Origin: an uncultured virus (IMG/VR IMGVR_UViG_3300023176_003360)
Lineage: Duplodnaviria; Heunggongvirae; Uroviricota; Caudoviricetes
DNA: 64,000 nt
Reading direction: 5' to 3' (one strand)
Virus record (IMG/VR): IMGVR_UViG_3300023176_003360
Shown: piece after piece, positions 46,973-63,544 of the stretch
How the letters are laid out: the number at the start of each line of letters is the position of its first letter
How positions within the stretch are numbered: the stretch's first letter is position 1
The notes under the pieces: model-generated
Told to the model about the DNA's origin: nothing
Seen by the model: only the letters and a program-made list of their open reading frames with translations
The model's database searches: none
Made by a program: the position numbers and the translations under genes

Positions 46973-46975
46973 TTT

Positions 46976-47649: not shown

Positions 47650-48026
47650 GATAAACCACACATTGTCTGATATTGATCCCAGGCCTTTTGCTGTGACGGA
47701 TTCATTTCATCCGCCGGCACAACACAGTCTAGCCAGTAGTAAGGCAGGCGCGGTACGTGGCTACCAAACCGTCGTGGCTGATGAATCTTACCACCGTCAT
47801 ACAGTTGTATAACCACATTGCGATAAACTTCTTCGCCTTCTGTGTTGCCTGCCCATTCGGGATTGCTCATACCACCATAGTTGTATCCATCCCAAATTTG
47901 ATTCCAATGTGCGTCATTGTGCGGATCGAAATCTGTTCGTGCGATAATACACAGAATGTCTTCATACAATACCCGTGCTTCTACAACGTCTCGAACGCAT
48001 CTACTTAAACTTAACCCTACCTTCAT
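47646..48026 (-). CDS. Hypothetical phage protein
   Basis: GLSLSRCVRD and GKIHQPR motifs. Confidence 0.65.
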   Translation of the reverse strand: MKVGLSLSRCVRDVVEARVLYEDILCIIARTDFDPHNDAHWNQIWDGYNYGGMSNPEWAGNTEGEEVYRNVVIQLYDGGKIHQPRRFGSHVPRLPYYWLDCVVPADEMNPSQQKAWDQYQTMCGLS

Positions 48027-48029
48027 ACA

Positions 48030-48329
48030 TTACACCTGCTCTGGCAACTTGCCTGTAATTAGATACATTTTTTTAAGGATACCATTTACATCCTCTTCGG
48101 ACAGAAACCCTTTTACAGTATCACCCGGTTGTGTAACACCAGGCAATTCGTGCTGTTGGTTTCCTTTAAACACAGCAATTTCATACAAACCTTGCTTGTT
48201 ACCATATGAACTTTCGTTCTGTACAATGCTTAGTTCGTAATCGCCAAAATCAAGTATTGCCTGAACACCCTTGGGCATTTCTGTGGGCATCATTTTAAAG
48301 TCGCTCATCTTCATCGTCATCTTCCTCAT
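48030..48329 (-). CDS. Hypothetical phage protein
   Basis: SYG..GLYEIAV motif. Confidence 0.65.
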   Translation of the reverse strand: MRKMTMKMSDFKMMPTEMPKGVQAILDFGDYELSIVQNESSYGNKQGLYEIAVFKGNQQHELPGVTQPGDTVKGFLSEEDVNGILKKMYLITGKLPEQV

Positions 48330-48708
48330 CTAAGTATTCACGTATATCAAATTCTTCGTTTGCTTCTTGTGCCTTTTTCATTAATGCTACTGCTTCGGGA
48401 TGATCAGCATACACTCCGCCTTTTTCAAAGTCACGCTCATCTAGAATAGGACCCCTGCTATCAGTATCACGCATCATCTGTGTGTATTGCTCAACAAGGC
48501 TTTCTTTTACATAAGTTTCTAGTTCAAATTCTTCTTCAGCAACATCTGATTCAATTTCTAATTCCATGTGGGTAACTGCTGGTTGCGTAGCAGTACTCCA
48601 CATCATTGGAACTCCATCTTCTCCATAGTAAACTTCTACAATTTCATACCAATAAGTCTCCGGGGATTCTGGTTGATATCGACGCATAATTCTGTAGTTC
48701 CAAGTCAT
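48295..48708 (-). CDS. Hypothetical acidic protein (start MTWNYR)
   Basis: WNYRI...EVYY motif. Confidence 0.6.
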   Translation of the reverse strand: MTWNYRIMRRYQPESPETYWYEIVEVYYGEDGVPMMWSTATQPAVTHMELEIESDVAEEEFELETYVKESLVEQYTQMMRDTDSRGPILDERDFEKGGVYADHPEAVALMKKAQEANEEFDIREYLDEEDDDEDERL

Positions 48709-49084
48709 CTTCGTTCTCACTATAATAAACATTTCTAATACCAAAACTTGCTATTGCTTTGGTACAACCCTTGCATGGCTTTGCTAAACCATAGATATAA
48801 CTTTTTGATTTATAGTTTGGTCTTTTCACCCTTACAACATATAAATCGCATTTTGCTAATTGTTCTACGTCAATTAGTTTTAGTGCATTTTTTATAGCAT
48901 CCATTTCTGCATGAAGGAAAACCTGTCCGTCTTTATATCCTTCGCCGTTCATTAATGGATGTGTTTTATAACTGTTCACTCCTGTTGCAATTACGTATTT
49001 TTTGTATACAACAGCACTGGCAAGTTTAAACCTGCCCTGAACACCTTCGTTTGCTATCGCTAGTTTACGAAGGTATTCAAACAT
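48644..49084 (-). CDS. Zn-dependent nucleoside/nucleotide deaminase (CDA/TadA-like)
   Basis: HAE and PCxxC motifs. ATG lies 5 nt after the tRNA-Leu CCA. Confidence 0.85.
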   Translation of the reverse strand: MFEYLRKLAIANEGVQGRFKLASAVVYKKYVIATGVNSYKTHPLMNGEGYKDGQVFLHAEMDAIKNALKLIDVEQLAKCDLYVVRVKRPNYKSKSYIYGLAKPCKGCTKAIASFGIRNVYYSENEDDLELQNYASISTRIPGDLLV

Positions 49085-49089
49085 ACGAT

Positions 49090-49174
49090 TGGTGCGGACA
49101 CCCGGACTCGAACCGGGACGGGATAACCCGAGAGATTTTAAGTCTCTTGTGTCTACCAATTCCACCATGCCCGC
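49090..49174 (-). tRNA. tRNA-Leu(TAA)
   Basis: Loop CTTAAAA, long variable arm, CCA. Confidence 0.93.
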
Positions 49175-49198
49175 ATTATTCATCGTACTTTCCAATCA

Positions 49199-49289
49199 TG
49201 GTGCCAGGACCAGGATTCGAACCTGGATCAGCCAATTATCTGTTGCTACGGAGTATAAGCCCGCTGTTTTACCGTTAAACTATCCTGGC
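49199..49289 (-). tRNA. tRNA-Ile(TAT) with long variable arm
   Basis: GCGGG-CTTATAC-TCCGT anticodon arm, extra stem-loop, canonical T-arm, A73-CCA. Confidence 0.8.
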
Positions 49290-49360
49290 GATGTATTTGT
49301 GATTGCTCCTCTATGGAATGTCTTACTGTCTATTAACTATACTACCGAATGGTATCTCTG

Positions 49361-50047
49361 TCAACTGTTTTGTATGTAATTATAGACTTTTTTGAGCAAT
49401 TTTTTTATTACTGGATGCCTTGTGTTAAAGTCCCAAGCACGTAGGTATCCTACTAGGTTAGGTGAAAGTAAATTACCTAGTTTATCTCTTAGTTCTGTTG
49501 TGTTGTTTACAGAACGTAACATATCTATAGCACGTTCTTTATCTGCGTGTCGTAATAGTTCACTTGAAATGTTTTTTGCAAACGCTTCTATTTCGTCTTG
49601 GTTACCTAGATATTCTTGTTCTGTATTTTTAGAACGATAATCTCTTTGTGTTTTAAAGTCTCTTTTTTGATACTGTATACTGTGAATCATTTCGTGTTCA
49701 AGAGCATCAACTAATCTGTGTTTGATTTCTTCTAGTGTGTCTTGTGAAAACTTAATACCTCTTTTATCTTTAGGATTAAAAAGTAATTCAATACGATAAG
49801 GATCCAATTCTTCTTCGTCGTCCCATGGATCATATGTTGCATTGAGATTCATATCACCTTGATCAACCTGTTCTACATAATCAACCGTAACTTCACCTAC
49901 ACCTAAGTGTTCTAGTGTTTGCTGTAATTGTAATGCAATGTATTTAGGTTTAAGAACATCTTCCATAGATAGATATGTTAGAAAAGCCTGTACGGATTTT
50001 TCTAGATCCTGTCTGTTTTTAGGTTGCTGAAGTTCGAACAAATGCAT
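49361..50047 (-). CDS. HExxH zincin-like protein, possibly virion-internal
   Basis: HEMIH and downstream EIEAFA. TAAATA-N5-ATG start. Confidence 0.6.
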   Translation of the reverse strand: MHLFELQQPKNRQDLEKSVQAFLTYLSMEDVLKPKYIALQLQQTLEHLGVGEVTVDYVEQVDQGDMNLNATYDPWDDEEELDPYRIELLFNPKDKRGIKFSQDTLEEIKHRLVDALEHEMIHSIQYQKRDFKTQRDYRSKNTEQEYLGNQDEIEAFAKNISSELLRHADKERAIDMLRSVNNTTELRDKLGNLLSPNLVGYLRAWDFNTRHPVIKKLLKKVYNYIQNS

Positions 50048-50055
50048 ACGTGTAT

Positions 50056-50496
50056 TTACTTGTATTCAAAGTTTTGACAATCCATATGTTTAGCAATAAA
50101 TTTAGCACCATTTTTTATATGGAATTTTCGTGCCATTTCAGTAAGAGGTGATAGTGTAACAAACCTTGTACAGGGGGTTTCTTTTTCTAAAAGTTTTTTA
50201 GTTTTTAAAACTATTTCTCTACCAGCACCCTTTTCGTAACTCCACACTGTATAAAAAACAGCAATGCGTCCATGCTGACCGTCTTGAATTGCCTGTTGAG
50301 AGAATATTTTTAAATCAAGTTCATTTGTGGGGATTTCGTTGCAATATGCTACACAAATAACAGAACGAATTTTATCTTTATTGCTTAATACAAAGATATC
50401 TTTGCCTGCACCAACACGATTCTGAAAAGGAATATGCGGACGAACAGGATCATTGGCTATTAAATGTTCTTCACCATTTCTAATCTTGCGTAGCAT
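50056..50496 (-). CDS. Hypothetical protein (GNAT-like fold possible)
   Basis: FYTVWSY.KGAGR, TLSP, FH.KNGA. Confidence 0.55.
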   Translation of the reverse strand: MLRKIRNGEEHLIANDPVRPHIPFQNRVGAGKDIFVLSNKDKIRSVICVAYCNEIPTNELDLKIFSQQAIQDGQHGRIAVFYTVWSYEKGAGREIVLKTKKLLEKETPCTRFVTLSPLTEMARKFHIKNGAKFIAKHMDCQNFEYK

Positions 50497-50677
50497 CTTT
50501 TTTCCTAATGCTCCACGAGCCGCTGTCTAGTTCTTCCCAGATAAGATCATCTCCGATATCCCAACCAACTTGTGCTAGTGCTTCGGGCGGTAGTTCTATG
50601 AAAAGTTCTTTTGTTTTGCCATCCTCTTGAACTTGAATAGTCCAACTATTTAGGCCTGTTTGTTTAGGATAGGACAT
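50480..50677 (-). CDS. AbrB/MazE-like DNA-binding protein
   Basis: IELP.E.L..VGW..GD.L pattern. Confidence 0.65.
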   Translation of the reverse strand: MSYPKQTGLNSWTIQVQEDGKTKELFIELPPEALAQVGWDIGDDLIWEELDSGSWSIRKKDATQD

Positions 50678-50687
50678 CCTTCACCTC

Positions 50688-51254
50688 CTACAGTATATGG
50701 TCTGCTACACCAAGATCAATCATCTGTTTAGCGGTGTAGTATTGGTCGCTTGGGTTTTTGATAAACTTATTACGCACCTCTTGAATGGTCATACCCGAAG
50801 CATCTTTTAATATATTTAAGCATCGCAGTTCACAGTTTTGATTTTCTTTCATCTGTGCTCTCATGTCGTGCATTTTAGATTCCATAGAATCTGTATGCTG
50901 ATGATTCATGCTACCTGCGTTCTTACCAATGTACCGTTCACCTTGTTTACCACTAGCGAAAATTAAAAATCCAGCACTCATAACAGCACCAATACCTATT
51001 GTGCTAATAGGATGATAACTGTTCTTCATGACATCAATAAGAGCAAACGCTTCGTACAAATCTCCACCATATGTGTTGATGTATAATTTAAGTGTGCGTT
51101 TTGGCTTCTTAACCAAATTGGCTGAAAGAATCCATTTAATTGCTTCACTTACATTGTCATCAGAAATATCACCACTTAGGTAGTGTATGTCATTATCCAG
51201 AAGACTTTTGTCTATTGCGTCGCTGGCTGTCCAATTTTCGTATTTTGCTGGCAT
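50688..51254 (-). CDS. clpP: Second, divergent ClpP-family protease
   Basis: YINTYGG, AVMSAG, HQ, DQYYTA...G.AD. Confidence 0.82.
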   Translation of the reverse strand: MPAKYENWTASDAIDKSLLDNDIHYLSGDISDDNVSEAIKWILSANLVKKPKRTLKLYINTYGGDLYEAFALIDVMKNSYHPISTIGIGAVMSAGFLIFASGKQGERYIGKNAGSMNHQHTDSMESKMHDMRAQMKENQNCELRCLNILKDASGMTIQEVRNKFIKNPSDQYYTAKQMIDLGVADHIL

Positions 51255-51299
51255 AATTATAATATACGCATATTTAGTTCATTTGTCAATCTTTTCATT

Positions 51300-51425
51300 T
51301 TCCAAGTACGGCCCCCATCCCGCCTACTTAGTGATCTGGCTCATTATGAACACGGAGTACCTACCAAACTACGCTCACGGATCCCCAGATCTTACCTAAT
51401 TTGCAATACATTCGTGTATTGCGGT
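51300..51425 (-). ncRNA. Candidate structured RNA downstream of tRNA-Arg
   Basis: GC-rich gap with three stems (GCAATAC/GTATTGC, GATCTGG/CCAGATC, AAGTAGGC/GCCGTACTT). No credible ORF. Confidence 0.4.
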
Positions 51426-51426
51426 T

Positions 51427-51503
51427 TGGCCTGCCCGGAGGGATTCGAACCCCCGACCCACGGCTTAGAAGGCCGTTGTTCTATCCTGCTGAACTACGGG
51501 CAG
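51427..51503 (-). tRNA. tRNA-Arg(TCT)
   Basis: Loop CTTCTAA, CCA. Confidence 0.93.
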
Positions 51504-51512
51504 ATTCTTATA

Positions 51513-51719
51513 TTACTGTAGCACTAAACTCCCTTCATGTGTTTGGTTCTTTGCGGCAATAATATCAAATAATTGATCCTGAAATGCTTCCATTTCTTCG
51601 TCTGAAATCCACTCGTAATCTAATTCATCATTTAAAACAGCCACCAAACGATTTACGTCACTTTCACGCAATTTTAGTGGATGATTTGTTTTACCGGGTT
51701 TAACGTACTTGATTCCCAA
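51513..51719 (-). CDS. Hypothetical protein
   Basis: TTG start, GAGG RBS, TTGACA-17-TATTAT promoter upstream. Confidence 0.55.
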   Translation of the reverse strand: MGIKYVKPGKTNHPLKLRESDVNRLVAVLNDELDYEWISDEEMEAFQDQLFDIIAAKNQTHEGSLVLQ

Positions 51720-51859
51720 TTTGAACGCCCTCTGTGCTGTTTCCTAACTATGTTTATATAATAACACCAACCGGACATGCTGTCAACTGGTTTTTAAAAT
51801 TTTATGGTAGTTTTTTTCCAAAACAACAATAAATACATTTGAGCGAGGATGTGTACAGT

Positions 51860-52138
51860 ATGGATTTTATGACGTTAGTGAGCGAGGTTGGGTTCCCTAT
51901 AGCAGGAGCAATAGCCGCTGGCGTCTTTGTATACCTTACACTAAAATTCATACTTGAGGGAGTTACAGGTAGTGTTACTACCCTCAAGAACATCATAGCA
52001 CAATTAGACAATCGTGTTCAAACCATGAACAATGATCTAGTCAAAATTGATGCTCTATTATCTTATACGCTAGGTGTTAAACCAAATGTTGATCGTATTG
52101 CGGCCAATGAAGGAAAAGAGGACGCAAGGAGAGATTAA
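51860..52138 (+). CDS. Small membrane protein, paralogue A
   Basis: GFPI..A...G.F TM helix and coiled coil. Confidence 0.7.
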   Translation: MDFMTLVSEVGFPIAGAIAAGVFVYLTLKFILEGVTGSVTTLKNIIAQLDNRVQTMNNDLVKIDALLSYTLGVKPNVDRIAANEGKEDARRD

Positions 52139-52485
52139 TGGAAGAACTTGATCTAGCAAACACTATCAAAGAACTAGGATTTCCAATAGTTGCCGCTGGA
52201 GGTATGGGTTACTTTATCTACTTTATTTGGAAGTGGGTAACAGAAACTATAGATCCTATCATAGGTCAAACAATGGGCACACTTATTAAACTTGTTGACC
52301 GTGTGCGTATGTTAGACAACGACATGATTCGTATGAACATGAAACTGTCAATGGTACTAGAACACAAACATCTGTTAGATAAAAATCTCACACAAGAACA
52401 AGCAAAAGAACTAGAAGAACTAGTTAACAAATATCAAAGTCGTAGCCAACAATTTAATAGCACAGGAGAAGAAGTTGAGAAGTAA
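52138..52485 (+). CDS. Small membrane protein, paralogue B
   Basis: Same GFPI TM motif and DRV..L.NDM/L core. Confidence 0.7.
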   Translation: MEELDLANTIKELGFPIVAAGGMGYFIYFIWKWVTETIDPIIGQTMGTLIKLVDRVRMLDNDMIRMNMKLSMVLEHKHLLDKNLTQEQAKELEELVNKYQSRSQQFNSTGEEVEK

Positions 52486-52608
52486 ACATGAACAAGAAGC
52501 ATGGGATCGAGCAATGGACTCAATCGGACCTGGCATATGGACATCGTGGGATTTGGCTAAGTACTTGGCACTAGGTTTAATACTAGGAACCTGTGTAGGA
52601 GTACTAGT

Positions 52609-52977
52609 TTGTCAAGCACTATCTTAATATTTTTATTTTTATTATTTGTAAAACACACGCTGGTTGATCTAGCAATACAACATCTATTTCCTAGCAACAA
52701 GGAAAATTATTTTAATCCAAACGCTCACACACATTACTTTCAACACGGAGCGTTAACCTTTTTGATTGCTATATTTTTTACAAGCATGCCGTTTGCGTTT
52801 ATGTTAGGATTTTTAGATTACGTTGTACACTGGCACGTTGATTATACTAAAACGAAAATTAGAATTAGTTTTAAATTAACAAACAAAGACGAGGCTTTTT
52901 GGTTTTTACAAGCACTTGATCAATCGCTACACTATGCTACTTATTTTGCGTTAGCAATAATTCTTACTTCTCTGTAG
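52609..52977 (+). CDS. DUF3307-like membrane protein
   Basis: KH...D...Q, HW.VD..K, DQ.LH motifs. Confidence 0.7.
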   Translation: MSSTILIFLFLLFVKHTLVDLAIQHLFPSNKENYFNPNAHTHYFQHGALTFLIAIFFTSMPFAFMLGFLDYVVHWHVDYTKTKIRISFKLTNKDEAFWFLQALDQSLHYATYFALAIILTSL

Positions 52978-55036
52978 CGACAAACGCACCGTTCCAATCC
53001 TTAGGAAGTTTCTGAGTTTTCATTAGTTCACAACGTTCAACCCAAATATCATAATACTTGTCCATTTGTCCACCAAAGTTGCCTTTCATACTCTTACACA
53101 TTTTAATCGCTTGATCAAACTTCTGTGCTTTATACAACTCGTGCATCTTTTCGTGTTCTACTCTATGATCATCATACTCTGTAGCATCAGCACATTTAAC
53201 ACGCAGAGCAGTCCAAATAAAGTCTGGAGTGCTTTTGCCTTTAGGTTGTAAGTTGTCTAAGAACAAGTAGAAGAAATCGTCTTTAGTACGTTTATATGTT
53301 TCGTTACCAATAATACATAACATACCGTATGCTTTACAACGTGCTTCAAGACGAGCCGCTACACTAACCATATCACCTAAGATATCGTAACTGTGTCTTG
53401 CACTTGATCCCATCTCACCAATAAATCCTTTACCCGAGTTTACACCAAATCCCATAGCGGCTGGTGGTAAACCTTTTGCTTCTGCTTCCTTAGTATAAGC
53501 ATCAACAGCGTCTAACATTTTTAATCCTACTTCAACAATAGTGTGTGCGTGATTAGGATCATCGATAGGAGCACCATGTATGTGCATACTTGCGTCACCT
53601 ACATATTTGATAACCATACCGTTCTTTTCAAGAATAGGTTTAGTAATACTATCCATATAGCCATTCATATAATCGCCTAAGCCTTTTACGTCATCGCCAT
53701 AGTGATCACCAATTGGAGTAAAGCCACGCAAGTCACTAAACATAACACTCACGTCTTTCTTAACACCCTTCTTGATTAGATCTGGATCTTCCTGTAGCAT
53801 TTTAACAACTTCTGGAGAGCAGTATCCTGCGAACTGTTTTTTGATTGCTTGCTTCTCTAAAAACTCACGCACAAATTTTATACCATAAACTTGAAGTGCG
53901 ATTAATACCAAAGTGATAACTGGTGCTGTAACATCTACTAGTAGTTTTTCAGTTTGGAAAAGATACATCGAAGCAGGTATGGTTCCTCCAATTAGAACAA
54001 CTGTTGCACCTAGTCCAACCAACATCCATCTGCTGAGTAATATCAGCAATAATCCGCCTGCTAAGAGCCCTAAGACTTCGTATAACGCTATCTCTGCAGG
54101 TCTTTGTATGTTTGTACCATTAATCATAGTTCCAAGCATAGCGGCTTGTACAGTGCCCGCAAATTCGCCACCTGTTGCTGTTGCTACCGGATTGGCTACA
54201 CCTCTTGCTGTAACATCTACAATTACAATTTTACCTTCCAAACTGTCTGGCAAATTGGATACACTTACTGTTTCATTTTTCTGTGCCCAATCTATCCAAG
54301 TGCGGCCTTCTGAATCAACAGGAATATAATAAAACTCTCTTGTGCGGAAATCTTTTAACATACGGAACATTGTAACACCATAAGGCGATATTTGTACGTC
54401 TATGCTTTTGGCGTTTGAATCTACCCTTAGTGCTTCAAGTGCTAAACTTGGAAAAACAAAACCTTCAAAAGGTTGTATGATAGCAATATTTGGAATACGT
54501 CTTACTACACCATCTACTTCTGGTTCCACTCCAACAATACCACTACCAGCGGCATTGTCTTCTACTTCTGGTATGTTATTGATTAGTCCTGGATAGGCTT
54601 GTAGTATTCCTGCGTTTTCTACACCTACCACGTTTACCTTTGGAGCCAATGGAGGATTGACTACTGTAAAGTCCGGACGTAACGGAACAACCACACGGTG
54701 TTTGCTCATTGTTTCTGCTAGAGCATCATCCTTGCCAAAACGATCTGTTTCTGGCATCATGACATTGAATACTATGGTTGATGCTTTTTTGTCTGCTATG
54801 CTTTGTATGATTTCAGCATATAAATCTCTTGGGAAAGGATACTGTCCATACTTTTGTAATGTAGCATCATCAATTTCTGCGACAACAATATTATTTTGTA
54901 CAGGTTCTTGATTAACAATTAAACTGTCAAAATAACGAAGTTTGATGCTTTCGATAAAAGCAGGATTTTGTAAGAATGTGTAGGCTAAAAAGCCAAGTGT
55001 GATCAGTGCCCACCAAGGCGATAATAATTTTTTCAT
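52964..55036 (-). CDS. CHASE2-domain class III adenylate/guanylate cyclase
   Basis: N-terminal TM, CHASE2 (GQYPFPR, DGVVRRIP), 3 TM, then FSDLRGFT, KYVGDA, GDMVSVAARLE. Confidence 0.92.
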   Translation of the reverse strand: MKKLLSPWWALITLGFLAYTFLQNPAFIESIKLRYFDSLIVNQEPVQNNIVVAEIDDATLQKYGQYPFPRDLYAEIIQSIADKKASTIVFNVMMPETDRFGKDDALAETMSKHRVVVPLRPDFTVVNPPLAPKVNVVGVENAGILQAYPGLINNIPEVEDNAAGSGIVGVEPEVDGVVRRIPNIAIIQPFEGFVFPSLALEALRVDSNAKSIDVQISPYGVTMFRMLKDFRTREFYYIPVDSEGRTWIDWAQKNETVSVSNLPDSLEGKIVIVDVTARGVANPVATATGGEFAGTVQAAMLGTMINGTNIQRPAEIALYEVLGLLAGGLLLILLSRWMLVGLGATVVLIGGTIPASMYLFQTEKLLVDVTAPVITLVLIALQVYGIKFVREFLEKQAIKKQFAGYCSPEVVKMLQEDPDLIKKGVKKDVSVMFSDLRGFTPIGDHYGDDVKGLGDYMNGYMDSITKPILEKNGMVIKYVGDASMHIHGAPIDDPNHAHTIVEVGLKMLDAVDAYTKEAEAKGLPPAAMGFGVNSGKGFIGEMGSSARHSYDILGDMVSVAARLEARCKAYGMLCIIGNETYKRTKDDFFYLFLDNLQPKGKSTPDFIWTALRVKCADATEYDDHRVEHEKMHELYKAQKFDQAIKMCKSMKGNFGGQMDKYYDIWVERCELMKTQKLPKDWNGAFVATEK

Positions 55037-55050
55037 ACTGGTATTTAATC

Positions 55051-55125
55051 AAAAAGAAAGGATAGGTGCTACAGTTCTGTCAACTTAGTGAGGGTTTTCA
55101 GAAACTGGTGTGTAGCACCTATCCC
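55051..55125 (-). terminator. Extended hairpin/terminator whose loop is antisense to the upstream gene's RBS
   Basis: 14-bp outer stem GGATAGGTGCTACA/TGTAGCACCTATCC, inner stem, 19-nt loop, U-rich tail. Confidence 0.8.
55076..55095. repeat. 20-bp inverted repeat, left copy
   Basis: TCTGTCAACTTAGTGAGGGT, exact reverse complement of 57044-57063. Confidence 0.95.
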
Positions 55126-55136
55126 TATTGTAGTTA

Positions 55137-57038
55137 TTAGAATTTAATTACGAGTCCCGCAGAAATGGCGTTTGTATTGCCTAGATCTGTCATGCTTCTT
55201 GTTGCTCCAACTCTCCAAGTAACTTTGTCTGTTTGTTTTTCAATACCAAGTGAAATATCATTTGTACCATCTGTGTGATGTAGTGCTGTAAAGTCAACCA
55301 GTCCTAGATCTCCACGCAATCCTACAGTACCATAACCGTACATTTCGCTTGTAGCATCTACTGTTCTAGCACTTTGTATCGAACCTGCTTCTGTATAACC
55401 ATCCACAGACCTTTTGCCACGTGTGTAACCGATCACAGGATTAACTTTTCCTGTGTCTGGTGAATACATGATTCTAGCACTGGTATCTTTACCTTTGGTT
55501 TCACTACCATTAGCAAAGTCACCGATTGTTCTTGAAACTGTGTAGTCAGTCATTGCGTGTCTAATTTCCAATGAAACATTGTTCTTTTCAACACCAAGGC
55601 CGATCATGTCAGTGTCTGCTTTTACAGTGTCATTGTTGCCTGATAAGTCAGCACCTAATCTTATAAAACCACCTGACACTGTTACACCGTTTTCTAGTTC
55701 TTTTGAACCTCCTACTACAGCACCTGTTGTTTTACCTGTCATGCCGTTTTTCATTTTGTGATCCATTCTTATACCTTGAATGTTGTCAAAGTCTAGATTT
55801 CTAAGTGTGCTTGAAACTGCGTCCTGTACAGTTGCAATTTGATCAACACGCCCTGTAAACGAACCCGGATCACTTACAGTTGTTACTGCAACACTGTCAG
55901 TTGATGTTCTTGCAGTTTCTACACCGTCTGTATATGTAATAATTTCCATTGGTGTTGTAACAATAGTTGTAGTTTCTCTATCGATAGTTTGTACAGTTGT
56001 GGTTTCACTTGCATCATGTGTAGTTTGTGTTTGTGTAAGCACAGGTAAGTCTGTGTCTACAACAGGGTCACTGTATGTAATGACTGGTTCGCTCGCTCCG
56101 TCTGCCGCATCAGTTGCCGAACCTACATCTTCAAATTCACCAGTTAAGATGTCTGCACCACCGCCTGCGCCACCTTCAATTGCATCATCAGCCGCGGCAA
56201 ACGCACTAGGCCCAAAGATGTAAGCATAACTTGCTGTTAAGATATCACCACTCGATACTGAACTCCAGTGCCAACTTAAACCAATAGTGTTATCGCCTGT
56301 GTTGGTTAAACTGCCGTCACCATCTACAGTGTTTTCAGTATAACCATCTGCTTCACTGCTCCATCTACTTATACCTGCATCAACATTAGAATCTGTCGAG
56401 TACAAACCTAGTGCATAACGACTCACAGTTGCTTCTGAGAACGCAACGTTTGAATCTGGAATAGCACCGTAGCCAAGCACGTTGTCAGTTGCCGAACTAT
56501 CGCCATCTGCCGCTCTAGCATCTGGATCGATAAAGCGTCCAAAGTAAACATCAGTAGCCGCTGTACCCATTGTGATTTGTGAACTAATGTCAATGTAAGG
56601 ACTAGTTGCTCCTAGGCTATAGGTATTAGTAATATCAAAAATACTATCAACACCGCCCGTCCAACTTAGAGTGTTATCTCCGTTAGTAAGTCCATTACCG
56701 TCACCTGCGATAGCAGTTCCGCCACCGTTGTTGTTTGTATAGTTTGTGCCATCAATCTTAACACTAAATCCGTCAAATGGTGATCCCGGTGTTAGATAGT
56801 CGTATGCTGTATTAAATGTTCCTGTTCCTGTGCTGTCAAACAGCAACCCTGGTGATGTATTGCCACCAGAACCAAAAGTACCTGTTGTACCATTTACACC
56901 TGCACGAACATAATCGTTTTCAAGTATGCCCATACCTGTTACGCTTGAATTCATGCTTGATGTGTCAGCAATGGCTACAGATAATGCCCCTGCCATTAGA
57001 GATACCGAGACGATGCCCGTTATAAAAAGTTTTTTCAT
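55137..57038 (-). CDS. Autotransporter-like outer-membrane beta-barrel protein
   Basis: Signal peptide, G/S/T/D-rich passenger, T-rich linker, amphipathic beta-strands ending in terminal Phe (GLVIKF). Confidence 0.75.
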   Translation of the reverse strand: MKKLFITGIVSVSLMAGALSVAIADTSSMNSSVTGMGILENDYVRAGVNGTTGTFGSGGNTSPGLLFDSTGTGTFNTAYDYLTPGSPFDGFSVKIDGTNYTNNNGGGTAIAGDGNGLTNGDNTLSWTGGVDSIFDITNTYSLGATSPYIDISSQITMGTAATDVYFGRFIDPDARAADGDSSATDNVLGYGAIPDSNVAFSEATVSRYALGLYSTDSNVDAGISRWSSEADGYTENTVDGDGSLTNTGDNTIGLSWHWSSVSSGDILTASYAYIFGPSAFAAADDAIEGGAGGGADILTGEFEDVGSATDAADGASEPVITYSDPVVDTDLPVLTQTQTTHDASETTTVQTIDRETTTIVTTPMEIITYTDGVETARTSTDSVAVTTVSDPGSFTGRVDQIATVQDAVSSTLRNLDFDNIQGIRMDHKMKNGMTGKTTGAVVGGSKELENGVTVSGGFIRLGADLSGNNDTVKADTDMIGLGVEKNNVSLEIRHAMTDYTVSRTIGDFANGSETKGKDTSARIMYSPDTGKVNPVIGYTRGKRSVDGYTEAGSIQSARTVDATSEMYGYGTVGLRGDLGLVDFTALHHTDGTNDISLGIEKQTDKVTWRVGATRSMTDLGNTNAISAGLVIKF

Positions 57039-57043
57039 GTTGT

Positions 57044-57063
57044 ACCCTCACTAAGTTGACAGA
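57044..57063. repeat. 20-bp inverted repeat, right copy, containing the RBS of the beta-barrel gene
   Basis: ACCCTCACTAAGTTGACAGA. On the minus strand it ends GAGGGT, 5 nt before the ATG. Confidence 0.95.
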
Positions 57064-57117
57064 TCCTCTTCTGTCTATATTATTTAAATCTTTTTGTTGT
57101 ATATTAATCAGACAGTA

Positions 57118-57549
57118 TTAATGTAGATCTCTGTTGTCCCAAGGTGCTGTTTCATAGCAACCTGCTGGTATAGTATCCTTGTAGTTTACCCAAGCACGGT
57201 ATCCGCCCTCGCCATCAAATTCAATGCCTGAACTTTCAAACGGTTGTACCCTCGGTTTACCCCAACACTTATTGTTGCTTTGCCCTGGATATCTATAACG
57301 TGGATTGTGTTTTAGGAAGTCACGCATTTCTGCGTATTCCTTTTTCATTTCTCCAACCTTCCATTGCGAATAACAAGCACTGGCTTTTGTCCAATCAACA
57401 CTATTAACATCAGATCCTGTTCTGTAATGCTGAACACAATCTTTTATCATTTTGTTGTTTAGGTTTTCTTCTGCTTGTGCTGTTGTTACCCATAACCACG
57501 ACAGTGCCGCCGCGGTGAGTAATCCGAATCCTATTATCCAATCTTTCAT
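57118..57549 (-). CDS. Exported Cys-containing hypothetical protein
   Basis: Signal peptide, 4 Cys, GAGGAG RBS. Confidence 0.7.
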   Translation of the reverse strand: MKDWIIGFGLLTAAALSWLWVTTAQAEENLNNKMIKDCVQHYRTGSDVNSVDWTKASACYSQWKVGEMKKEYAEMRDFLKHNPRYRYPGQSNNKCWGKPRVQPFESSGIEFDGEGGYRAWVNYKDTIPAGCYETAPWDNRDLH

Positions 57550-57561
57550 TTTCTCGCTCCT

Positions 57562-58887
57562 CTAATCGTCTTGGATGACTGTTAATGAACAGCCTGCGGC
57601 AACGTAACACGTACCGCTTGTGGTGCTACCATCGCTCATCGAATGTGGTAGACTGTATTCTTTGTCTGTAGTGCCTTTTTGATTTAAATTAAAATCCCAA
57701 GCACCCCCTCCGTTTTCTAACTCTATAGTTGCGTCATGACTGCCACTACCCTCTTGTACGATTGTAGCATTATGACCGTCACCTATTAGGTCAAGTTGTA
57801 GATAGTGCTGTCCACTATCTTTTTGTATTACATCAACCGTGTTTGAATTACCATCAACACCTATAAATGCTGTTTTGCTTCCACTGCCTGTTTGTAGTAA
57901 ATCCAGTGTGTTTGAATTACCGTCAATCACCACATCGCCAAAATGTGTTCCAACACCTGCTGTATCATTTTGATCAATATCAACTGTGTTGCTGTTTCCT
58001 ACAATAGTAAGTTCTAAGTAATGTTCAGCATCGTGTTGGTCAATATCTATTACGTTACTGTTACCTGTAACATTGACATGTGCTTCCATACCGTGTGCGG
58101 CTGTATCGCTTAGTTTACTAGAACGCTTTGTGCTTTGTGCGCCTGTTATACCTGATGAATACACAGGTGTTACACTTGAACTACTAGATGTATACAGGCC
58201 TTCTTCTTCTGCCACCGTTGTGAGGAACACGGTCATATTAGAAGTGTTTTGTATATTGGTTTGAAACTGATCATATCCCATAGCAACTATTATGCTACCA
58301 CCGTTGGAGCCATAGTCCCATTTGTACCAAGTGTGCCAACTACTGCCTGAGGAGTTGGATGCCATTGCTGTTCCGCCCGTGGCGTTAAACACTTGCCCTG
58401 CTCCTGGTAATACTTCTTGAGATGCTGTGGCGTAATCTCCCACTGACATACTATAGTAACACAGATCAGTGCTACAGGTGCCGGTGTGGTAGGACATGGT
58501 TCCCACGTTCATCTTGCTTTCAATCAGTGTCTCGATGTTGCTCTGTCTGTTGGAGGCTCCTTGTGGTGCGGCTATGATTAGTTTGCCACCACCACTAACA
58601 TATGAGTCATACACTGAACGACAGGTGCTACCACAGTTGGAGTTGCCTGCTATGTCAATCACCAGTTCCTTGCCTGACACATCACTTGAACTCACTGTTG
58701 TCGAGGTGCTACCCGTAACTGTGAAACCTAATCCTTCATAATGCGACTTTAGACGACTGTATTCAGCACCAGTGTCTGTTGAGTTATAGTAGATGAATAG
58801 ATCATTGGCCCACACAGGTGTAGCAAATAGCAAGAACAATACGCTACTGATTTTGAATAATGTTGATCTCAACACTTGATCCTCCAT
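57562..58887 (-). CDS. Secreted protein with C-terminal curlin-like repeats
   Basis: Signal peptide, globular N-domain, repeated GNSN.(V/L)D(I/L/V).Q units. Exact start uncertain. Confidence 0.75.
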   Translation of the reverse strand: MEDQVLRSTLFKISSVLFLLFATPVWANDLFIYYNSTDTGAEYSRLKSHYEGLGFTVTGSTSTTVSSSDVSGKELVIDIAGNSNCGSTCRSVYDSYVSGGGKLIIAAPQGASNRQSNIETLIESKMNVGTMSYHTGTCSTDLCYYSMSVGDYATASQEVLPGAGQVFNATGGTAMASNSSGSSWHTWYKWDYGSNGGSIIVAMGYDQFQTNIQNTSNMTVFLTTVAEEEGLYTSSSSSVTPVYSSGITGAQSTKRSSKLSDTAAHGMEAHVNVTGNSNVIDIDQHDAEHYLELTIVGNSNTVDIDQNDTAGVGTHFGDVVIDGNSNTLDLLQTGSGSKTAFIGVDGNSNTVDVIQKDSGQHYLQLDLIGDGHNATIVQEGSGSHDATIELENGGGAWDFNLNQKGTTDKEYSLPHSMSDGSTTSGTCYVAAGCSLTVIQDD

Positions 58888-59959
58888 TAATTATTATTTC
58901 AGCAGGTACGTTGTCCTGTGTTATGTTTAGATTCACATTGCCGTCACGCTCTGTATTAATATCTGCTATGTGTGGAACACGTTCCGAACGAACAAAGACG
59001 CCTTGTTCGTTGTAGTAACTTTGATTTTTAATCCAAGGATACTTGTTGATTGTAGGAAGTACACCATCAAATTCTTCCATAGCATCACCAAGATCACCTT
59101 TGGTTAAGTCTAGCAAGTTATCTAAGAAATCACCACCATATTGATCTCTATCTAGTTCATTTTTTTCTAATTCGTCATTTGCTAACAGGTCTTTCATTAG
59201 TTCGTCAAATTCTAACAAGTCTATATCTAAAAAACTTGATGTAGTTTGTTCTTCGTCACTGGTTTGAAATCCTTTTGGAAACTGATAAGGTGGACTAATA
59301 ATAAGCAGATTGCTCAGTGTTGGCTTGTCAGTAAGTATTTTTGGTTTTGAAGGACGAGCAAAGGCGCTGGATACGACAGTACTTTCGTAAGGGCGATTCA
59401 TAATAACGTATCCAGCACCAGTGCTGACCATGATTTCACCTACGGGGCAATTATTTTCGTCGTCTTTGTTTTCTATAAGACCAAAGTCGGGGCATGAAGG
59501 GAGGAGCGTAACCATACTTTGTCCTATTTCATTTACAACCATTGCGAAGTCAGTACCACGTACTGACACGGTTGCTGTAGGTGTTCTAAGACGAACGTTT
59601 TCGGGGTTATTTTTAGCGACACCACCACTCGCATAACGCACAGTTCCCATCGCAACAGTCATAGCCAATTTACCCGTTTGAGCATTTGGGTTATAAGCAA
59701 ATTCGTCGATGATAAACTGTGATCCTTCTATCACTGCTACCTTTGTGTTGTCTTCAAAGGTTAGTGCTAGTTTTGTGTTTTTAGTTTCAATAGCATCATT
59801 CATTTCAAGGCCCACACCCTTTTTGGCCGTAAGGGTATCCTTGTCCCGATACAATGAGGCGTCAGGACCTTGTTGCTCTGTGATAGAGCCAATCTCTGCA
59901 AAAGCAGAGGTTATGAACAGTAGACTACAGACCGTCGCCCTGAGTAATGTTGATCTCAT
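58844..59959 (-). CDS. FecR-domain periplasmic protein
   Basis: D.I.T, F.D.T, G.VRYASG, TPTATVSVRGTDF. Confidence 0.85.
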   Translation of the reverse strand: MRSTLLRATVCSLLFITSAFAEIGSITEQQGPDASLYRDKDTLTAKKGVGLEMNDAIETKNTKLALTFEDNTKVAVIEGSQFIIDEFAYNPNAQTGKLAMTVAMGTVRYASGGVAKNNPENVRLRTPTATVSVRGTDFAMVVNEIGQSMVTLLPSCPDFGLIENKDDENNCPVGEIMVSTGAGYVIMNRPYESTVVSSAFARPSKPKILTDKPTLSNLLIISPPYQFPKGFQTSDEEQTTSSFLDIDLLEFDELMKDLLANDELEKNELDRDQYGGDFLDNLLDLTKGDLGDAMEEFDGVLPTINKYPWIKNQSYYNEQGVFVRSERVPHIADINTERDGNVNLNITQDNVPAEIIINGGSSVEINIIQNQ

Positions 59960-60608
59960 TGCCTGTACCGTCTATTGTTAGGTCCACTACTCCTGATTCC
60001 GTTGTACTATCTTGTGTTATGTTAACTATGTTGCTGTCACTGCCTGCTGTGGTTCCACCGATGCTTACTTTAACTTCTGTAGTTCCATCAGTACCTGTGA
60101 TACCGCTTCTGCCAATAGCAATTTTGTTACTGTCAGATGAGTTAGCAATGTCAATGTCTACGCCAATGTAGTCCTGACTCATATCAGTTCCACACACAGC
60201 ATCTGTTACACTGCTTGCCGCTGTTGTTACTGTTCCACAAACATCTACTTTGTTACTAGAACCAACCACGTTTACATCAATTGCTGGGTCACTAACTGAA
60301 CCTAAATCAATATTAAGTTCGTTGCTAGAACCATCTTGTACAACATCAATGTCTGGTGCTGTTGTTGATGATCCTGTTTCGATGTCAACGGTGTTGCTTG
60401 ATCCGTCTTGTGAAATGTCGATATCGGCGCTAGATCCGTTAATGGTTGTTCTTTCACTTGAACTACCTACACGGTTTCCATCACCTTGTTGTGTTATGTC
60501 AATAGTCGAAGATGAACCTGCTTGATCAAGATATACATCAGCCGCTTTAGCCGTTGTTACTCCTATCATTAATGTTATCATCGCTATCCAAGTTATCTTG
60601 TTTAGCAT
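59925..60608 (-). CDS. Curlin-like (CsgA/CsgB-type) repeat protein
   Basis: Signal peptide (AKA-A), repeats I.I.Q.G..N. AAGGAG RBS before the ATG at 60608. Confidence 0.75.
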   Translation of the reverse strand: MLNKITWIAMITLMIGVTTAKAADVYLDQAGSSSTIDITQQGDGNRVGSSSERTTINGSSADIDISQDGSSNTVDIETGSSTTAPDIDVVQDGSSNELNIDLGSVSDPAIDVNVVGSSNKVDVCGTVTTAASSVTDAVCGTDMSQDYIGVDIDIANSSDSNKIAIGRSGITGTDGTTEVKVSIGGTTAGSDSNIVNITQDSTTESGVVDLTIDGTGNEINITQGDGL

Positions 60609-61515
60609 TTTCTCGCTCCTTTTGATCTGCCCCTTGCACGACAGACGTTTGTTTAAATTCGAAAGGCTCACTCAATTTCCAGTAACCCTTTCGTTCCCCC
60701 TCTTTGATCACTTCTACTACCGCTTGATCAATTGCCGCCCTCACAGCATAACCAACCGGTTCATTAATAGTGTGACCTGCTTCTATTTCTGCCGCCTGTG
60801 TACCCATATCAAAGAATCTAAAGAACGTAAAACTATTACCTGTGCTTAGTATTGTTTTGGTAGTGCTTACTGTTATTATTACTTCTCCTGTGGTAACTGC
60901 GACAACTCGCATACTAACTGTCACAACATCTTGTCTATATTGTGTACTAGGACCAATACCTAGGTATCTTGCTCCGGCCCCGCCTGTTAGTATATTGCTA
61001 TCATAGCCTGTGATGCCTCCCTCCACTATCATACCTGCCTGCATCAATGGCGGTAGTGGTTTATCCTTACACTGTATCGTATCAGGATTAATGCCCTTCT
61101 CTTGGGCTAGTTTTGCTTTTTCTTTTTCACAAGCATCTTCAGCAAACTGCTGTCTTGCTTGTCTTATAATCTGTCTTTCTTTAGTAAGACTGTCGAGGTT
61201 TACACGTTCAACAACTGTGAACCACTCGCCTTTTCCTACATCTTGTAGTGCGTTTATCACCCAAGCATCTGCGCCTTGTGTAACTGCGTAACTGATATTA
61301 CTGAACTTTTCACCTGGTTTACGCTGTCCTGTTAGATCCTTAAAACTGTAAACAGCAACCACAACTTTTCCACGTTCTGGTTTTGGAACAGCATCAAAGT
61401 CGCTTACCATGCTGGGCTCAATTGCTTTAGGCAGTTCAGGTTTATGTACAGGTTGCATGGTAGCACACCCTGTAACCAAGGCAAGTGTTAATAATAAAGT
61501 TGCTATAAGTTTCAT
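60547..61515 (-). CDS. csgG: Curli secretion channel CsgG
   Basis: Lipobox VTGC, VAVYSFKDLTGQRK, AVTQGA, WFTVVER..L..L.KERQII, GGAGARYLGIG, NEPV. Confidence 0.93.
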   Translation of the reverse strand: MKLIATLLLTLALVTGCATMQPVHKPELPKAIEPSMVSDFDAVPKPERGKVVVAVYSFKDLTGQRKPGEKFSNISYAVTQGADAWVINALQDVGKGEWFTVVERVNLDSLTKERQIIRQARQQFAEDACEKEKAKLAQEKGINPDTIQCKDKPLPPLMQAGMIVEGGITGYDSNILTGGAGARYLGIGPSTQYRQDVVTVSMRVVAVTTGEVIITVSTTKTILSTGNSFTFFRFFDMGTQAAEIEAGHTINEPVGYAVRAAIDQAVVEVIKEGERKGYWKLSEPFEFKQTSVVQGADQKERENAKQDNLDSDDNINDRSNNG

Positions 61516-61977
61516 TTAAAAAGCAAAGTCCCCAACAGGTGTTTCAAACTCACTTGCTAGATTTCCATTACTGTCGTAGATCTCAACATAGATTACACCA
61601 TTCTCTCTTTTCCATTTGATAGTATCACCAAATGGTGTTTCACTTTCTGCCCATTGACCGTCTACTATATCGCCGCCTTCGCCAAACAGGCTATCAGCAA
61701 TATTCTTAGATAATTGAGCATAAATTCTTGATTCTAGGTTGTTTTTGAACTTGTACATATTGGTGCTCTTTTCTTCACGCTCTGCTTTGTCAATTGCGGC
61801 TTGAGCATCCTCTTTGTTTTTGTCTTTTCTTTGTTGTTCAAGTTGATGTATTGTAAGAACGTGTGTGCTATATCCTTGTCCACTGAAACTCGGGCTCTTA
61901 AAATCGTGTGTCAATTCGCCAGAGAAAGCGGTTGTAGCAAACATCATGGTTACAATAATTGTGCTAATTTTATACAT
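61516..61977 (-). CDS. csgF: Curli assembly protein CsgF
   Basis: Signal peptide then ELTHDFKSPSFSG, and F..NLESRIYAQLS. Confidence 0.85.
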   Translation of the reverse strand: MYKISTIIVTMMFATTAFSGELTHDFKSPSFSGQGYSTHVLTIHQLEQQRKDKNKEDAQAAIDKAEREEKSTNMYKFKNNLESRIYAQLSKNIADSLFGEGGDIVDGQWAESETPFGDTIKWKRENGVIYVEIYDSNGNLASEFETPVGDFAF

Positions 61978-62062
61978 TCCTCGCTCCTATTCGCATGTAT
62001 TTACCGTTAAATCAGACGAACTGACACTAATATACTATTATTTACGGGAGGAGAAAATATAA

Positions 62063-62452
62063 TTAAATTGGAGTATTATGAACTTGTAGTTCTTCTAAAC
62101 CGTGTTCACGATCGATATATTTGGTATCAACCTTGATAGGTTTGTACTGCTGTAACCATGCTAACACTATTTGTGGATCAAAAGGTCCACAGGTATAAAC
62201 GTCAAGTTGAATTATAGCAGGATCGCATTCGTCCCACGTGTGCATTACAATGTGTGAAGTTTCTATGATTGCGGCAACTGTTAGTCCTCTGTTACCGGGC
62301 ATGGTCACATACTTTGCATATGGACCCATAAGCAGTTTCATGCCTATGCGATCTATCAGATCTTTAACGTGTTCGCTTGCTAGTTTTTCTACTGTGGGCG
62401 GATTTAGCACTTCCGCTCTAATAATAACATGTTTGTGCACCAACGGCTCCAT
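62063..62452 (-). CDS. speD: S-adenosylmethionine decarboxylase proenzyme
   Basis: IIETSHI..HTW, LDVYTCG. Confidence 0.85.
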   Translation of the reverse strand: MEPLVHKHVIIRAEVLNPPTVEKLASEHVKDLIDRIGMKLLMGPYAKYVTMPGNRGLTVAAIIETSHIVMHTWDECDPAIIQLDVYTCGPFDPQIVLAWLQQYKPIKVDTKYIDREHGLEELQVHNTPI

Positions 62453-62495
62453 TAACAAGTACCAGATCTATTTATGATCAAGGTCATAAAATAGA

Positions 62496-62579
62496 TGGTG
62501 CTCTAGGAGAGATTCGAACTCTCACGCCTTGCGGCACTGGTTCCTAAGACCAGCGTGTCTACCGTTCCACCACCAGAGC
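62496..62579 (-). tRNA. tRNA-Leu(TAG)
   Basis: Loop CTTAGGA, long variable arm, CCA. Confidence 0.93.
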
Positions 62580-62580
62580 A

Positions 62581-62656
62581 TGGTAGTCCGTAGGGGAATC
62601 GAACCCCTCTTTCCGCCGTGAAAGGGCGGTGTCCTAAACCGATAGACGAACGGACC
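62581..62656 (-). tRNA. tRNA-Glu(TTC)
   Basis: Loop CTTTCAC, CCA. Confidence 0.93.
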
Positions 62657-62660
62657 ATAA

Positions 62661-62722
62661 TCTAGTGCTTTAGAACTTGACAGGTAAACCATGAATCGCT
62701 GTTCTACAGTTTTAGCACTAGA
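62661..62722 (-). ncRNA. Candidate hairpin small RNA in the tRNA-Glu 5' leader
   Basis: Outer stem TCTAGTGCT/AGCACTAGA, inner stem TAGAAC/GTTCTA, 24-nt loop. Confidence 0.5.
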
Positions 62723-62763
62723 ATAATAGTTAACAGTACACTCTTTCGAGCATACTGTCAACC

Positions 62764-63285
62764 TTATTTTATCCTCAACTCCTCTATGTTTATAGGAGTA
62801 AAGTTAATTTGTTCCACACAAACACACCTGTGATTTGGTGTAGGACTAGGGTTAGTGTGTATGTGTCCATGCACGTTAACCATTTTGGTGTCCTTGAACC
62901 TACCTTCACCCAATGTGCTGTTGTGTACAGGAACGTGTGTTAAAAGCAATCCAAACTCTGGAAACATTCTCCACACGTCAATTTTAGCAACCAACTCGTG
63001 TTTAGCAAAGAACTTGGCATCATCGTGGTTGCCCAATATCAAACGCTTTTGACCGTTAAGTCTTTTCCAAAGCGTCTTGAATGTGTCCTTGTTGCCAAAG
63101 AACACGTCACCCAAGTGATACACTTTGTCGCCAGGTTTCACAACACTGTTCCAGTTGTCCACCATGGTTTCATCCATGTGTTCTACACTGTCAAACGCAC
63201 GAACAGGCTTGCCATCACTATCCTTAAAGGTCAAGATATTGCTGTGCTGAAAGTGCGTGTCGCTTATTACCCATATGTTTCTCAT
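62764..63285 (-). CDS. Calcineurin-like metallophosphoesterase
   Basis: SDTH, GD, GNHD, H, HGHIH. Confidence 0.9.
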   Translation of the reverse strand: MRNIWVISDTHFQHSNILTFKDSDGKPVRAFDSVEHMDETMVDNWNSVVKPGDKVYHLGDVFFGNKDTFKTLWKRLNGQKRLILGNHDDAKFFAKHELVAKIDVWRMFPEFGLLLTHVPVHNSTLGEGRFKDTKMVNVHGHIHTNPSPTPNHRCVCVEQINFTPINIEELRIK

Positions 63286-63303
63286 GTATCACCTCTTATA
63301 AAT

Positions 63304-63377
63304 TGGAGTGGACGACAGGAATCGAACCTGTATGGATGGATTTGCAATCCACTGCGTAACCATTCCGCCACGCCCAC
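63304..63377 (-). tRNA. tRNA-Cys(GCA)
   Basis: Loop TTGCAAA, U73, CCA. Confidence 0.92.
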
Positions 63378-63380
63378 AAA

Positions 63381-63450
63381 GTGGAGACCTTTCTCGAGGG
63401 CGCCTCCTATTCCCGCCTGATCTTATATGTAGGGGCTCAGGCCTAACCAC
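63381..63450 (-). ncRNA. Candidate structured spacer RNA between tRNA-Trp and tRNA-Cys
   Basis: GC-rich. GCCTGA/TCAGGC hairpin and GGAGGC...GTCTCC hairpin. Confidence 0.35.
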
Positions 63451-63470
63451 GTTTATACTCGTACCCTATT

Positions 63471-63544
63471 TGGCACCGGAACAAGGAATCGAACCTCAGT
63501 TTGCGGTTTTGGAGACCGTCGTGTTACCACTACACCATTCCGGC
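63471..63544 (-). tRNA. tRNA-Trp(CCA)
   Basis: Loop CTCCAAA, CCA. Confidence 0.93.

Follow-up and report, generated by a model that had tools for sequence, protein, structure and literature searches.

A terminal hairpin that mirrors the ribosome-binding site of its own gene: a probable RNA control element of a phage autotransporter

The autotransporter gene and its complementary ends

The DNA studied here is a stretch of 64,000 nucleotides (nt), referred to below as the window, from an uncultured virus of the Caudoviricetes (IMG/VR record IMGVR_UViG_3300023176_003360). Our subject is a gene for a predicted autotransporter and the hairpin that follows it, in which a perfect complement of the gene's own ribosome-binding site (RBS) is displayed. 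The gene occupies positions 55137-57038 on the minus strand and encodes 633 amino acids (aa). On either side of it lie the arms of a 20-nt inverted repeat, at 55076-55095 and 57044-57063, which are 100% complementary and 1948 nt apart. A first-pass annotation, made by a model from the letters alone, had pointed to these exact reverse complements, and a search of the window agreed with it: with up to three mismatches allowed, the arm pattern was found at these two places only, the chance expectation being 0.01, and none of 100 shuffled sequences gave two matches. Within the 64 kb this is the only perfect inverted repeat that reaches 20 nt. A 21-nt, 95% inverted match between 42561-42581 and 52123-52143 was also seen; there two opposite-strand genes share the start region ..AAGGAGAGAUUAAUGGAA.

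The upstream arm (57044-57063, minus strand, UCUGUCAACUUAGUGAGGGU) is the translation-initiation region, as had been stated, and contains the Shine-Dalgarno (SD) sequence GAGGGU (GAGGGT in the DNA) at 57044-57049, 5 nt before the ATG. The downstream or anti-RBS arm (55076-55095, minus strand) reads ACCCUCACUAAGUUGACAGA as RNA and lies mostly within a hairpin loop. That loop has a single strong target in the window, the autotransporter start region, with a pairing energy of -38 kcal/mol compared with -24 kcal/mol for the next best.

The 3' hairpin (55060-55124, minus strand) starts 12 nt past the stop codon of the gene. It has a perfect outer stem of 14 base pairs (bp), formed by 55060-55073 with 55111-55124, a bulged inner stem and a 19-nt apical loop, AAAACCCUCACUAAGUUGA. 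The loop takes up about 15 of the 20 bases of the arm and the inner stem the other 5, so that the first-pass description of a copy held mostly in the 19-nt loop of a bulged hairpin with a U-tract was accurate. The hairpin folds at -29.7 kcal/mol (z = -4.5), none of 200 shuffled sequences folding equally well, and it is the only one in the window with a perfect stem of at least 12 bp. The U-tract UUUCUUUUU (55051-55059, minus strand) follows directly, and the arrangement resembles an intrinsic terminator, with a 14-bp stem and then UUUCUUUUU.

A second, smaller hairpin, GACAGA-agagga-UCUGUC, is found at 57058-57075 (minus strand), at the predicted start of the transcript; among lineages its stems vary and still pair. 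Its 3' arm is part of the 20-nt complementary arm, and long-range pairing would therefore compete with this 5' hairpin. Elsewhere in the window, at 38541-38569, the RBS (AAGGAGA) of the gene at 38095-38544 falls in the loop of a local hairpin whose stem contains the start codon; this hairpin may be a local translational control element.

No Pfam family matches the 633-aa protein. A structure model built from eight homologues had a mean pLDDT of 65, with residues from about 400 to 633 at 80-94, and in this part a helix at 400-414 is followed by 12 strands. The best Foldseek matches of the model were the translocator domains of EstA, NalP, AaaA, EspP, AIDA-I, Hbp and BrkA, with TM scores on the target of 0.53-0.64 and E values down to 1e-7. 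The passenger half was poorly modelled; the signal peptide and the C-terminal Phe were recognised by eye. According to the model and these matches, the protein is a type Va autotransporter, with a signal peptide, a passenger and a C-terminal helix threaded through a 12-strand barrel. The earlier label of a beta-barrel gene was right as to the barrel, and autotransporter is the more precise name that the model and Foldseek allow.

Conservation of the pairing in related loci

Related loci were collected by protein-guided scans, 18 of them viral and 80 from metagenomes (the latter the best 80 of 231 confirmed relatives); with the window this made 99 records. Flanks of 45 nt or more on the upstream side of the gene and of 100 nt or more on the downstream side were available for 72 records, of which 55 were distinct. 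The region from -30 to +3 of each gene was then paired with that gene's own 700 nt downstream. The cognate pairing energies were bimodal. Sixteen of the 55 distinct records paired at -29 to -51 kcal/mol, and did so at the hairpin (L019, which is identical to the window, L025, L024, L090, L023, L097, L096, L002, L044, L075, L001, L010, L080, L081, L021 and L022), while 37 fell within the range of non-cognate controls, whose median was about -18 kcal/mol. Two further low values, for L059 (-32.9) and L052 (-30.7), were judged spurious by eye, the targets lying 220 and 620 nt downstream in coding sequence and outside hairpin loops; their duplex scores came from a GC-rich 5' hairpin.

A GC-rich 5' hairpin, ..CCGCGGCG-UGAGGG-CGCAACCGG.., occurs in L003, L007, L038, L040, L052 and their relatives, all of which are without the anti-RBS hairpin. 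Its loop presents a second SD-like GAGGG, and GAGGG is often found in the 5' hairpin loops of the positive lineages too. The sequence could be a standby or decoy site for ribosomes.

Among the positive lineages the arms are of at least five very different sequences, as judged by eye, with about ten subtypes, and complementarity is kept throughout. Examples are UCUGUCAACUUAGUGAGGGU, UCCAUAACGAGGGUAAC, CUACUUCAGUGAGGGUGACA, GUUCGCAGAGAGGGUAAC and UGUUGUUUAUUUGGUGAGGAUA, in the last of which the SD is different. Helix length is 14-23 bp, the helix of L025 being bulged, and the SD is paired in 15-16 of the 16. In L021 and L022 the SD itself is changed (GGUGAGGAUA) and the loop is changed to match. 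Of 180 cognate cells in the 12 columns that precede the SD core, 139 are paired, compared with an average of 6.6 of 12 for non-cognate combinations; in 20,000 permutations the total of cognate pairing was never as high as that observed, in a test which ignores relatedness and is inflated for that reason. For the divergent lineages the best match is their own hairpin; the arms of the core clade are alike and cross-match. After the cost of opening both sites was included, the net energy of the exact cores was -7 to -20 kcal/mol in 15 of the 16 lineages. For L025 the value was -2.6 kcal/mol, since its bulged helix entered the calculation only in part.

The anti-RBS is always in the apical part of the hairpin, and the outer stem varies by lineage and still pairs. 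Covariation in that stem was counted on nine sequences in register, with L019, L025, L024, L075, L001, L021 and L022 left out, each of which folds alone into a hairpin. Changes on both sides were present at 8 of the 12 pairs; pairing is found in 91% of cells, a share which drops to 33-51% if the partner is slid, and the covariation score was reached by none of 500 shuffles. RNAalifold gave no consensus for the 16 hairpins, the divergent stems having been placed out of register by MAFFT.

The mismatches in the long-range helices are of a particular kind. The cells that are not Watson-Crick comprise 13 G-U or U-G (at about nine distinct positions), one C-C and one A-G position, and no A-C. In the series L010, L081 and L080 one position passes from C-G through U-G to U-A, and neighbouring positions alternate between G-U and A-U. 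Since a recombined DNA repeat should give A-C as often as G-T, the presence of G-U without A-C favours a helix in sense-strand RNA. The same pattern, together with the display of one arm in a loop, led us to reject distant operator half-sites for a DNA-binding protein.

The context of the hairpin was also examined in 12 loci found through the neighbouring cyclase protein. Ten of them have no autotransporter, and before the cyclase gene they show a plain terminator with a small loop or nothing. In L102 the autotransporter is present with a plain terminator only, and in L100, where its 3' part is present, the anti-RBS hairpin is present as well. In L001 and L075 an open reading frame (ORF) of 108 codons lies between gene and hairpin, and the loop still matches the autotransporter start region. 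This ORF (5846-6170 in L001) overlaps the autotransporter stop codon (TAATATG) and is conserved between the two loci; that it is a relocated copy of the 143-aa gene that neighbours the autotransporter in the window was ruled out by tblastn. Overall, the RBS and the 3' loop do co-vary in homologues, 16 of the 55 keeping the pairing with changed arms, and the core of the first-pass idea, that the 3' loop pairs as RNA with the gene's own RBS, is strongly supported by this covariation.

Proposed mode of action

The feature is real and conserved and, to judge from the compensatory changes, very probably functional as RNA, and we regard the terminal hairpin as a likely anti-RBS element which limits translation of the autotransporter. 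The exposed loop of the 3' hairpin would contact the SD region of the autotransporter mRNA, and the helix would then spread into the 3' arm of the 5' hairpin. The SD would be occluded and binding of the 30S subunit blocked, and the resulting duplex of 14-23 bp might be cut by RNase III. In the window phage the hairpin would act, after the mRNA has been fully transcribed, on the 5' end of that mRNA or on sister molecules. The expected result is less of an outer-membrane protein, one which has to pass through the Sec and Bam machinery, and limitation of its dose may be the purpose of the pairing. An RNA with these ends, its pairing in vivo, the repression and its purpose are what we infer from the sequences.

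Several points weigh against this reading. The covariation tests are inflated by shared ancestry, and the independent arm types number about five to ten rather than 16. On a quick protein tree the feature is found in a core clade of nine and on four more distant branches, with five changes of state of which at least three are forced; the pattern points to loss of an old trait on several occasions, or to repeated gain. Since 37 of the 55 distinct loci do without it, it is dispensable for the gene. The presumed direction of the effect, repression, is deduced only from the covering of the SD. Pairing in cis with the outer stem intact makes a pseudoknot, which is outside the scoring of the folding programs used. 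Lastly, with transcription and translation coupled, ribosomes would be able to load at a time when the 3' end has yet to be made.

A different kind of switch, anti-termination, in which the 5' region invades the terminator, was considered and rejected, since the 14-bp outer stem takes no part in the pairing.

Action in cis or in trans

A sequence box that recurs in the window bears on whether the hairpin acts as part of the mRNA or as a separate molecule. TAAATA is the most enriched 6-mer upstream of the window genes, being present in 20 of 78 regions compared with 1.8 expected. Its enrichment suggests a promoter element of the -10 type, with transcription starting about 6 nt downstream. For the autotransporter gene the box is at 57081-57086 (minus strand), -48 to -43 from the ATG, and the mRNA start predicted at -37 from the TAAATA-N5-ATG spacing is the first base of the 5' hairpin. 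A TAAATA box lies within 75 nt upstream of the autotransporter ATG in all 16 positive lineages.

In nine minus-strand genes of the window (3886-4269, 32376-32699, 33751-34305, 39539-40294, 40304-40921, 40930-41265, 45319-45663, 49361-50047 and 52964-55036) the box stands 5 nt, once 6 nt, before the ATG, often as ..TAAATAnnnTATG, and there is no SD. These look like genes with leaderless mRNAs made from a late-type promoter.

The box is also found in front of the anti-RBS hairpin, as TAAATA (once TAAATG) 2-13 nt before it, in 11 of the 16 lineages, and a U-tract follows the hairpin in only two. The role of terminator assigned to the hairpin by the first-pass annotation consequently holds for the window, where the U-tract is present, and not as a general trait. 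In L024 the autotransporter has a terminator of its own, a stem and T8 at +39 to +66, with the box and the anti-RBS hairpin beyond it. In those lineages with a box, and in L024 with its terminator, a separate trans-acting RNA is therefore favoured. It had been proposed that the full-length mRNA, or a processed 3' RNA, blocks its own RBS; covariation upholds the pairing, but strict action in cis across 1.9 kb is not established, given the boxes in 11 of 16 lineages and the terminator of L024.

That the active species in general is such a separate RNA, silencing the autotransporter mRNA in trans, is a possibility we hold as tentative. It could be a small hairpin RNA with its own TAAATA promoter, or a fragment cut from the 3' end, and would then resemble in its action the c4 RNA of phages P1 and P7 or the small RNAs derived from 3' UTRs. 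Motif and spacing before the hairpin in the 11 lineages are those seen before the 5' hairpin and the leaderless-looking genes; in L024 the gene's terminator separates it from box and hairpin, and in L001 and L075 the 108-codon ORF intervenes. L025, with box, 5 nt, hairpin and U-tract in that order, resembles a complete small-RNA gene. In addition the anti-SD stands in a 7-nt loop (UUACCCU in most of these loops) on a short inner stem, and 7-nt loops on short stems are typical of antisense kissing loops. Set against this, the promoter role of TAAATA is deduced from enrichment only, and the regions after the stop codon are AT-rich and contain TAA, so that chance boxes are favoured in some lineages. 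The window phage itself has TAATAAC in place of a box before its hairpin, and it has the U-tract. Its hairpin is for these reasons most likely the 3' end of the autotransporter mRNA, and we lean slightly towards its acting there as the mRNA's own end rather than as a separate or processed small RNA.

In the 14 lineages with no U-tract the hairpin could be the leader of a longer cyclase mRNA. A more specific form of the trans reading is offered here as a speculation less probable than its opposite: the hairpin would be an antisense RNA with a lineage-private address, made from a late-type TAAATA promoter as a small RNA or as the cyclase leader, and would switch the autotransporter off when the cyclase end of the cassette is switched on.

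Other explanations of the complementary arms

The pairing might act mainly on the fate of the mRNA and not by blocking ribosomes, as an RNase III site or through protection of the ends by closing a circle; we hold this reading to be improbable. The helices of 14-23 bp do approach the size of an RNase III substrate. There are precedents in that the interaction in icaR, as described in passages of PMC3868564, both blocks initiation and makes a substrate for RNase III, and in that the interaction of the 5' and 3' untranslated regions (UTRs) of hbs concerns mRNA stability, according to passages of PMC5737220. Against this, the only constant part of every helix is the SD, which an element of pure stability would not need.

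Far less probable is the alternative that the first-pass annotation itself had raised, an invertible, phase-variable segment of DNA. The arms would then be its sites of recombination, and the gene would be flipped relative to its promoter. The whole coding region is indeed flanked by perfect inverted repeats, and concerted evolution of recombination sites could keep the arms alike. However, two DNA runs and two runs labelled as RNA, available as contigs, which can miss rare forms, contained no strand-changing joint, and contigs span each arm in the reference orientation. In related loci none of 80 flanking genes was inverted (56 matches to the cyclase and 24 to the 143-aa gene), all of them sharing the strand of the autotransporter. 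No recombinase, integrase or invertase family was detected among the window proteins scanned (10 and 59 with Pfam, 30 with PHROGs), which agrees with the earlier remark that no recombinase was visible in the window. Finally, the mismatches are G-U and never A-C, and one arm is always in a hairpin loop. The invertible segment thus found no support. Contig ends at 57060 are not transcript ends, because the DNA runs show them too.

A match of no function, arising by chance or by a one-off duplication of the RBS segment into the terminator, would fit the absence of the feature from 37 of 55 distinct loci and is very improbable, given the chance expectation of 0.01 and its retention with different sequences in at least five arm types.

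The surrounding cassette

The window comes from a large marine phage. A PHROGs search of its genes found tail fibre, head protease, clamp loader and endolysin families, and there are many auxiliary genes, among them PhoH, Fe-S assembly, SOD, DnaJ and MazG. Almost all the genes are on the minus strand. Nine tRNA genes lie within 44990-63544, and tRNA-Ser with anticodon ACT and tRNA-Ile with anticodon TAT are unusual predictions among them.

On the 5' side of the autotransporter gene are genes for CsgF, CsgG, a curlin-repeat protein, a FecR-domain protein, a second curlin-repeat protein and the 143-aa protein, and on its 3' side is a CHASE2 adenylate cyclase gene (52964-55036, minus strand). A TAAATA box at 55042-55047 (minus strand), 5 nt 5' of the cyclase ATG, marks the downstream boundary of the unit. 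The cyclase start has no SD and the TAAATA arrangement is the same in relatives; because the SD is missing, the cyclase mRNA may be leaderless.

By their context these genes are the viral cassette of curli (type VIII secretion system), FecR and adenylate cyclase published for pelagiphages (Wittmers et al. 2022, PMC9599517, from passages of that paper). The gene content is the same, with CsgF, CsgG, a curlin-repeat protein, FecR, a second curlin-repeat protein and adenylate cyclase, and in the window (55137-61977) an exported 143-aa protein and the 633-aa autotransporter are added before the cyclase. The words 'autotransporter' and 'late promoter' do not occur in the main text of PMC9599517, and no passage on RNA regulation of the curli cassette was met in the parts of that paper covered. 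The autotransporter locus (54900-57300) gave no blastn match among named phage records, and the nearest virus record (G001, 14 kb) gave no match to the 633-aa protein.

Three cassette genes have a near-identical start region, (A)GGAGCGAG(A/G)AA(A)ATG, at 57118-57139, 60609-60630 and 61978-61999. In relatives the site of the autotransporter is ..AGCGAGGGUAAC.., and anti-RBS loops of that type therefore share 6-7 nt with these three start regions.

Comparison with known systems

To our knowledge there are very few cases in bacterial-type mRNAs of direct pairing between the 3' end and the RBS, such as icaR and, less directly, hok. The 3' UTR of icaR in Staphylococcus aureus carries an anti-SD which prevents initiation and gives rise to a substrate for RNase III, and the choice between cis and trans was left open, as passages of that study state (Ruiz de los Mozos et al. 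2013, PMC3868564). The likeness is an anti-SD past the coding region which is complementary to the SD of its own gene, here over 20 of 20 nt including GAGGGT. In icaR, as those passages describe it, the motif UCCCCUG is within a 3' UTR of more than 100 nt, whereas here the complement is in the apical loop of a terminal hairpin 12 nt after the stop codon. The phage element also differs in its perfect 20-bp helix, in its lineage-specific, co-varying arms and in the gene, which is for an outer-membrane protein, and it is known from sequence. That both sites are on one transcript in the window is suggested by the hairpin and U-tract 12 nt after the stop codon, with no box between.

The hok mRNA of plasmid R1 is kept untranslated at full length by a long-distance contact between its ends (tac/fbi), according to passages of PMC9841398. 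It shares with the present case an interaction between 5' and 3' ends, and in hok the state of the 3' end decides translation. There, in the same account, the 5'-3' stem stabilises a fold in which the ucb box sequesters the SD, whereas here the 3' element would pair with the SD directly. The phage locus lacks a small toxin ORF, and neither an antisense gene of the Sok kind nor any sign of trimming at the 3' end was seen there. A type I toxin-antitoxin system of the hok/Sok kind was ruled out, the gene being that of a 633-aa autotransporter with no antisense gene found.

Two phage systems are also close. In phages P1 and P7, the subject of work by Citron and Schuster in 1990, loops of the c4 RNA reportedly pair with the ribosome-binding region of the target, with matched changes between related phages. 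The c4 RNA is encoded ahead of its target and is released from the transcript by processing. The likeness is that of a phage RNA from the same operon whose exposed loops pair with a ribosome-binding region; here the element is downstream and there is no context of lysogeny or immunity. In T7 gene 1.2, in work attributed to Saito and Richardson in 1981, the 3' sequence of the unprocessed mRNA is said to pair with the ribosome-binding region and to inhibit translation, a block which RNase III cutting reportedly relieves; here there is no known processing site. For c4 a dependence on the antisense RNA is also on record, since full repression of ant needs C4 antisense RNA, for which a binding site is named, in passages of PMC8198154.

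An Rfam cmscan of 54000-58000 at E <= 1 returned only STnc280 (57017-57101), at 23.8 bits against a gathering score of 80, and the hairpin itself matched no family at that threshold, c4 (RF01695) included. The element belongs to neither the hok nor the c4 family, and no description of a phage terminal hairpin which mirrors the RBS of its own gene was found in the open-access literature.

Significance

Judged by analogy with these systems, the mode of regulation would resemble the known 5'-3' anti-SD kind, and the form it takes here appears to be a new variant. Evidence for such pairing usually comes from mutagenesis; at this locus a series of compensatory variants is offered by nature, the arms being of at least five very different sequences. 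The element would be the first regulatory element proposed for the viral curli-FecR-cyclase cassette, which is abundant in marine phages. If the more tentative trans reading were true, the hairpin would be a wire from one mRNA to another inside an auxiliary gene cassette. Its co-evolving address would moreover confine its action to its own phage in mixed infections, as the c4 address of P1 and P7 reportedly does.

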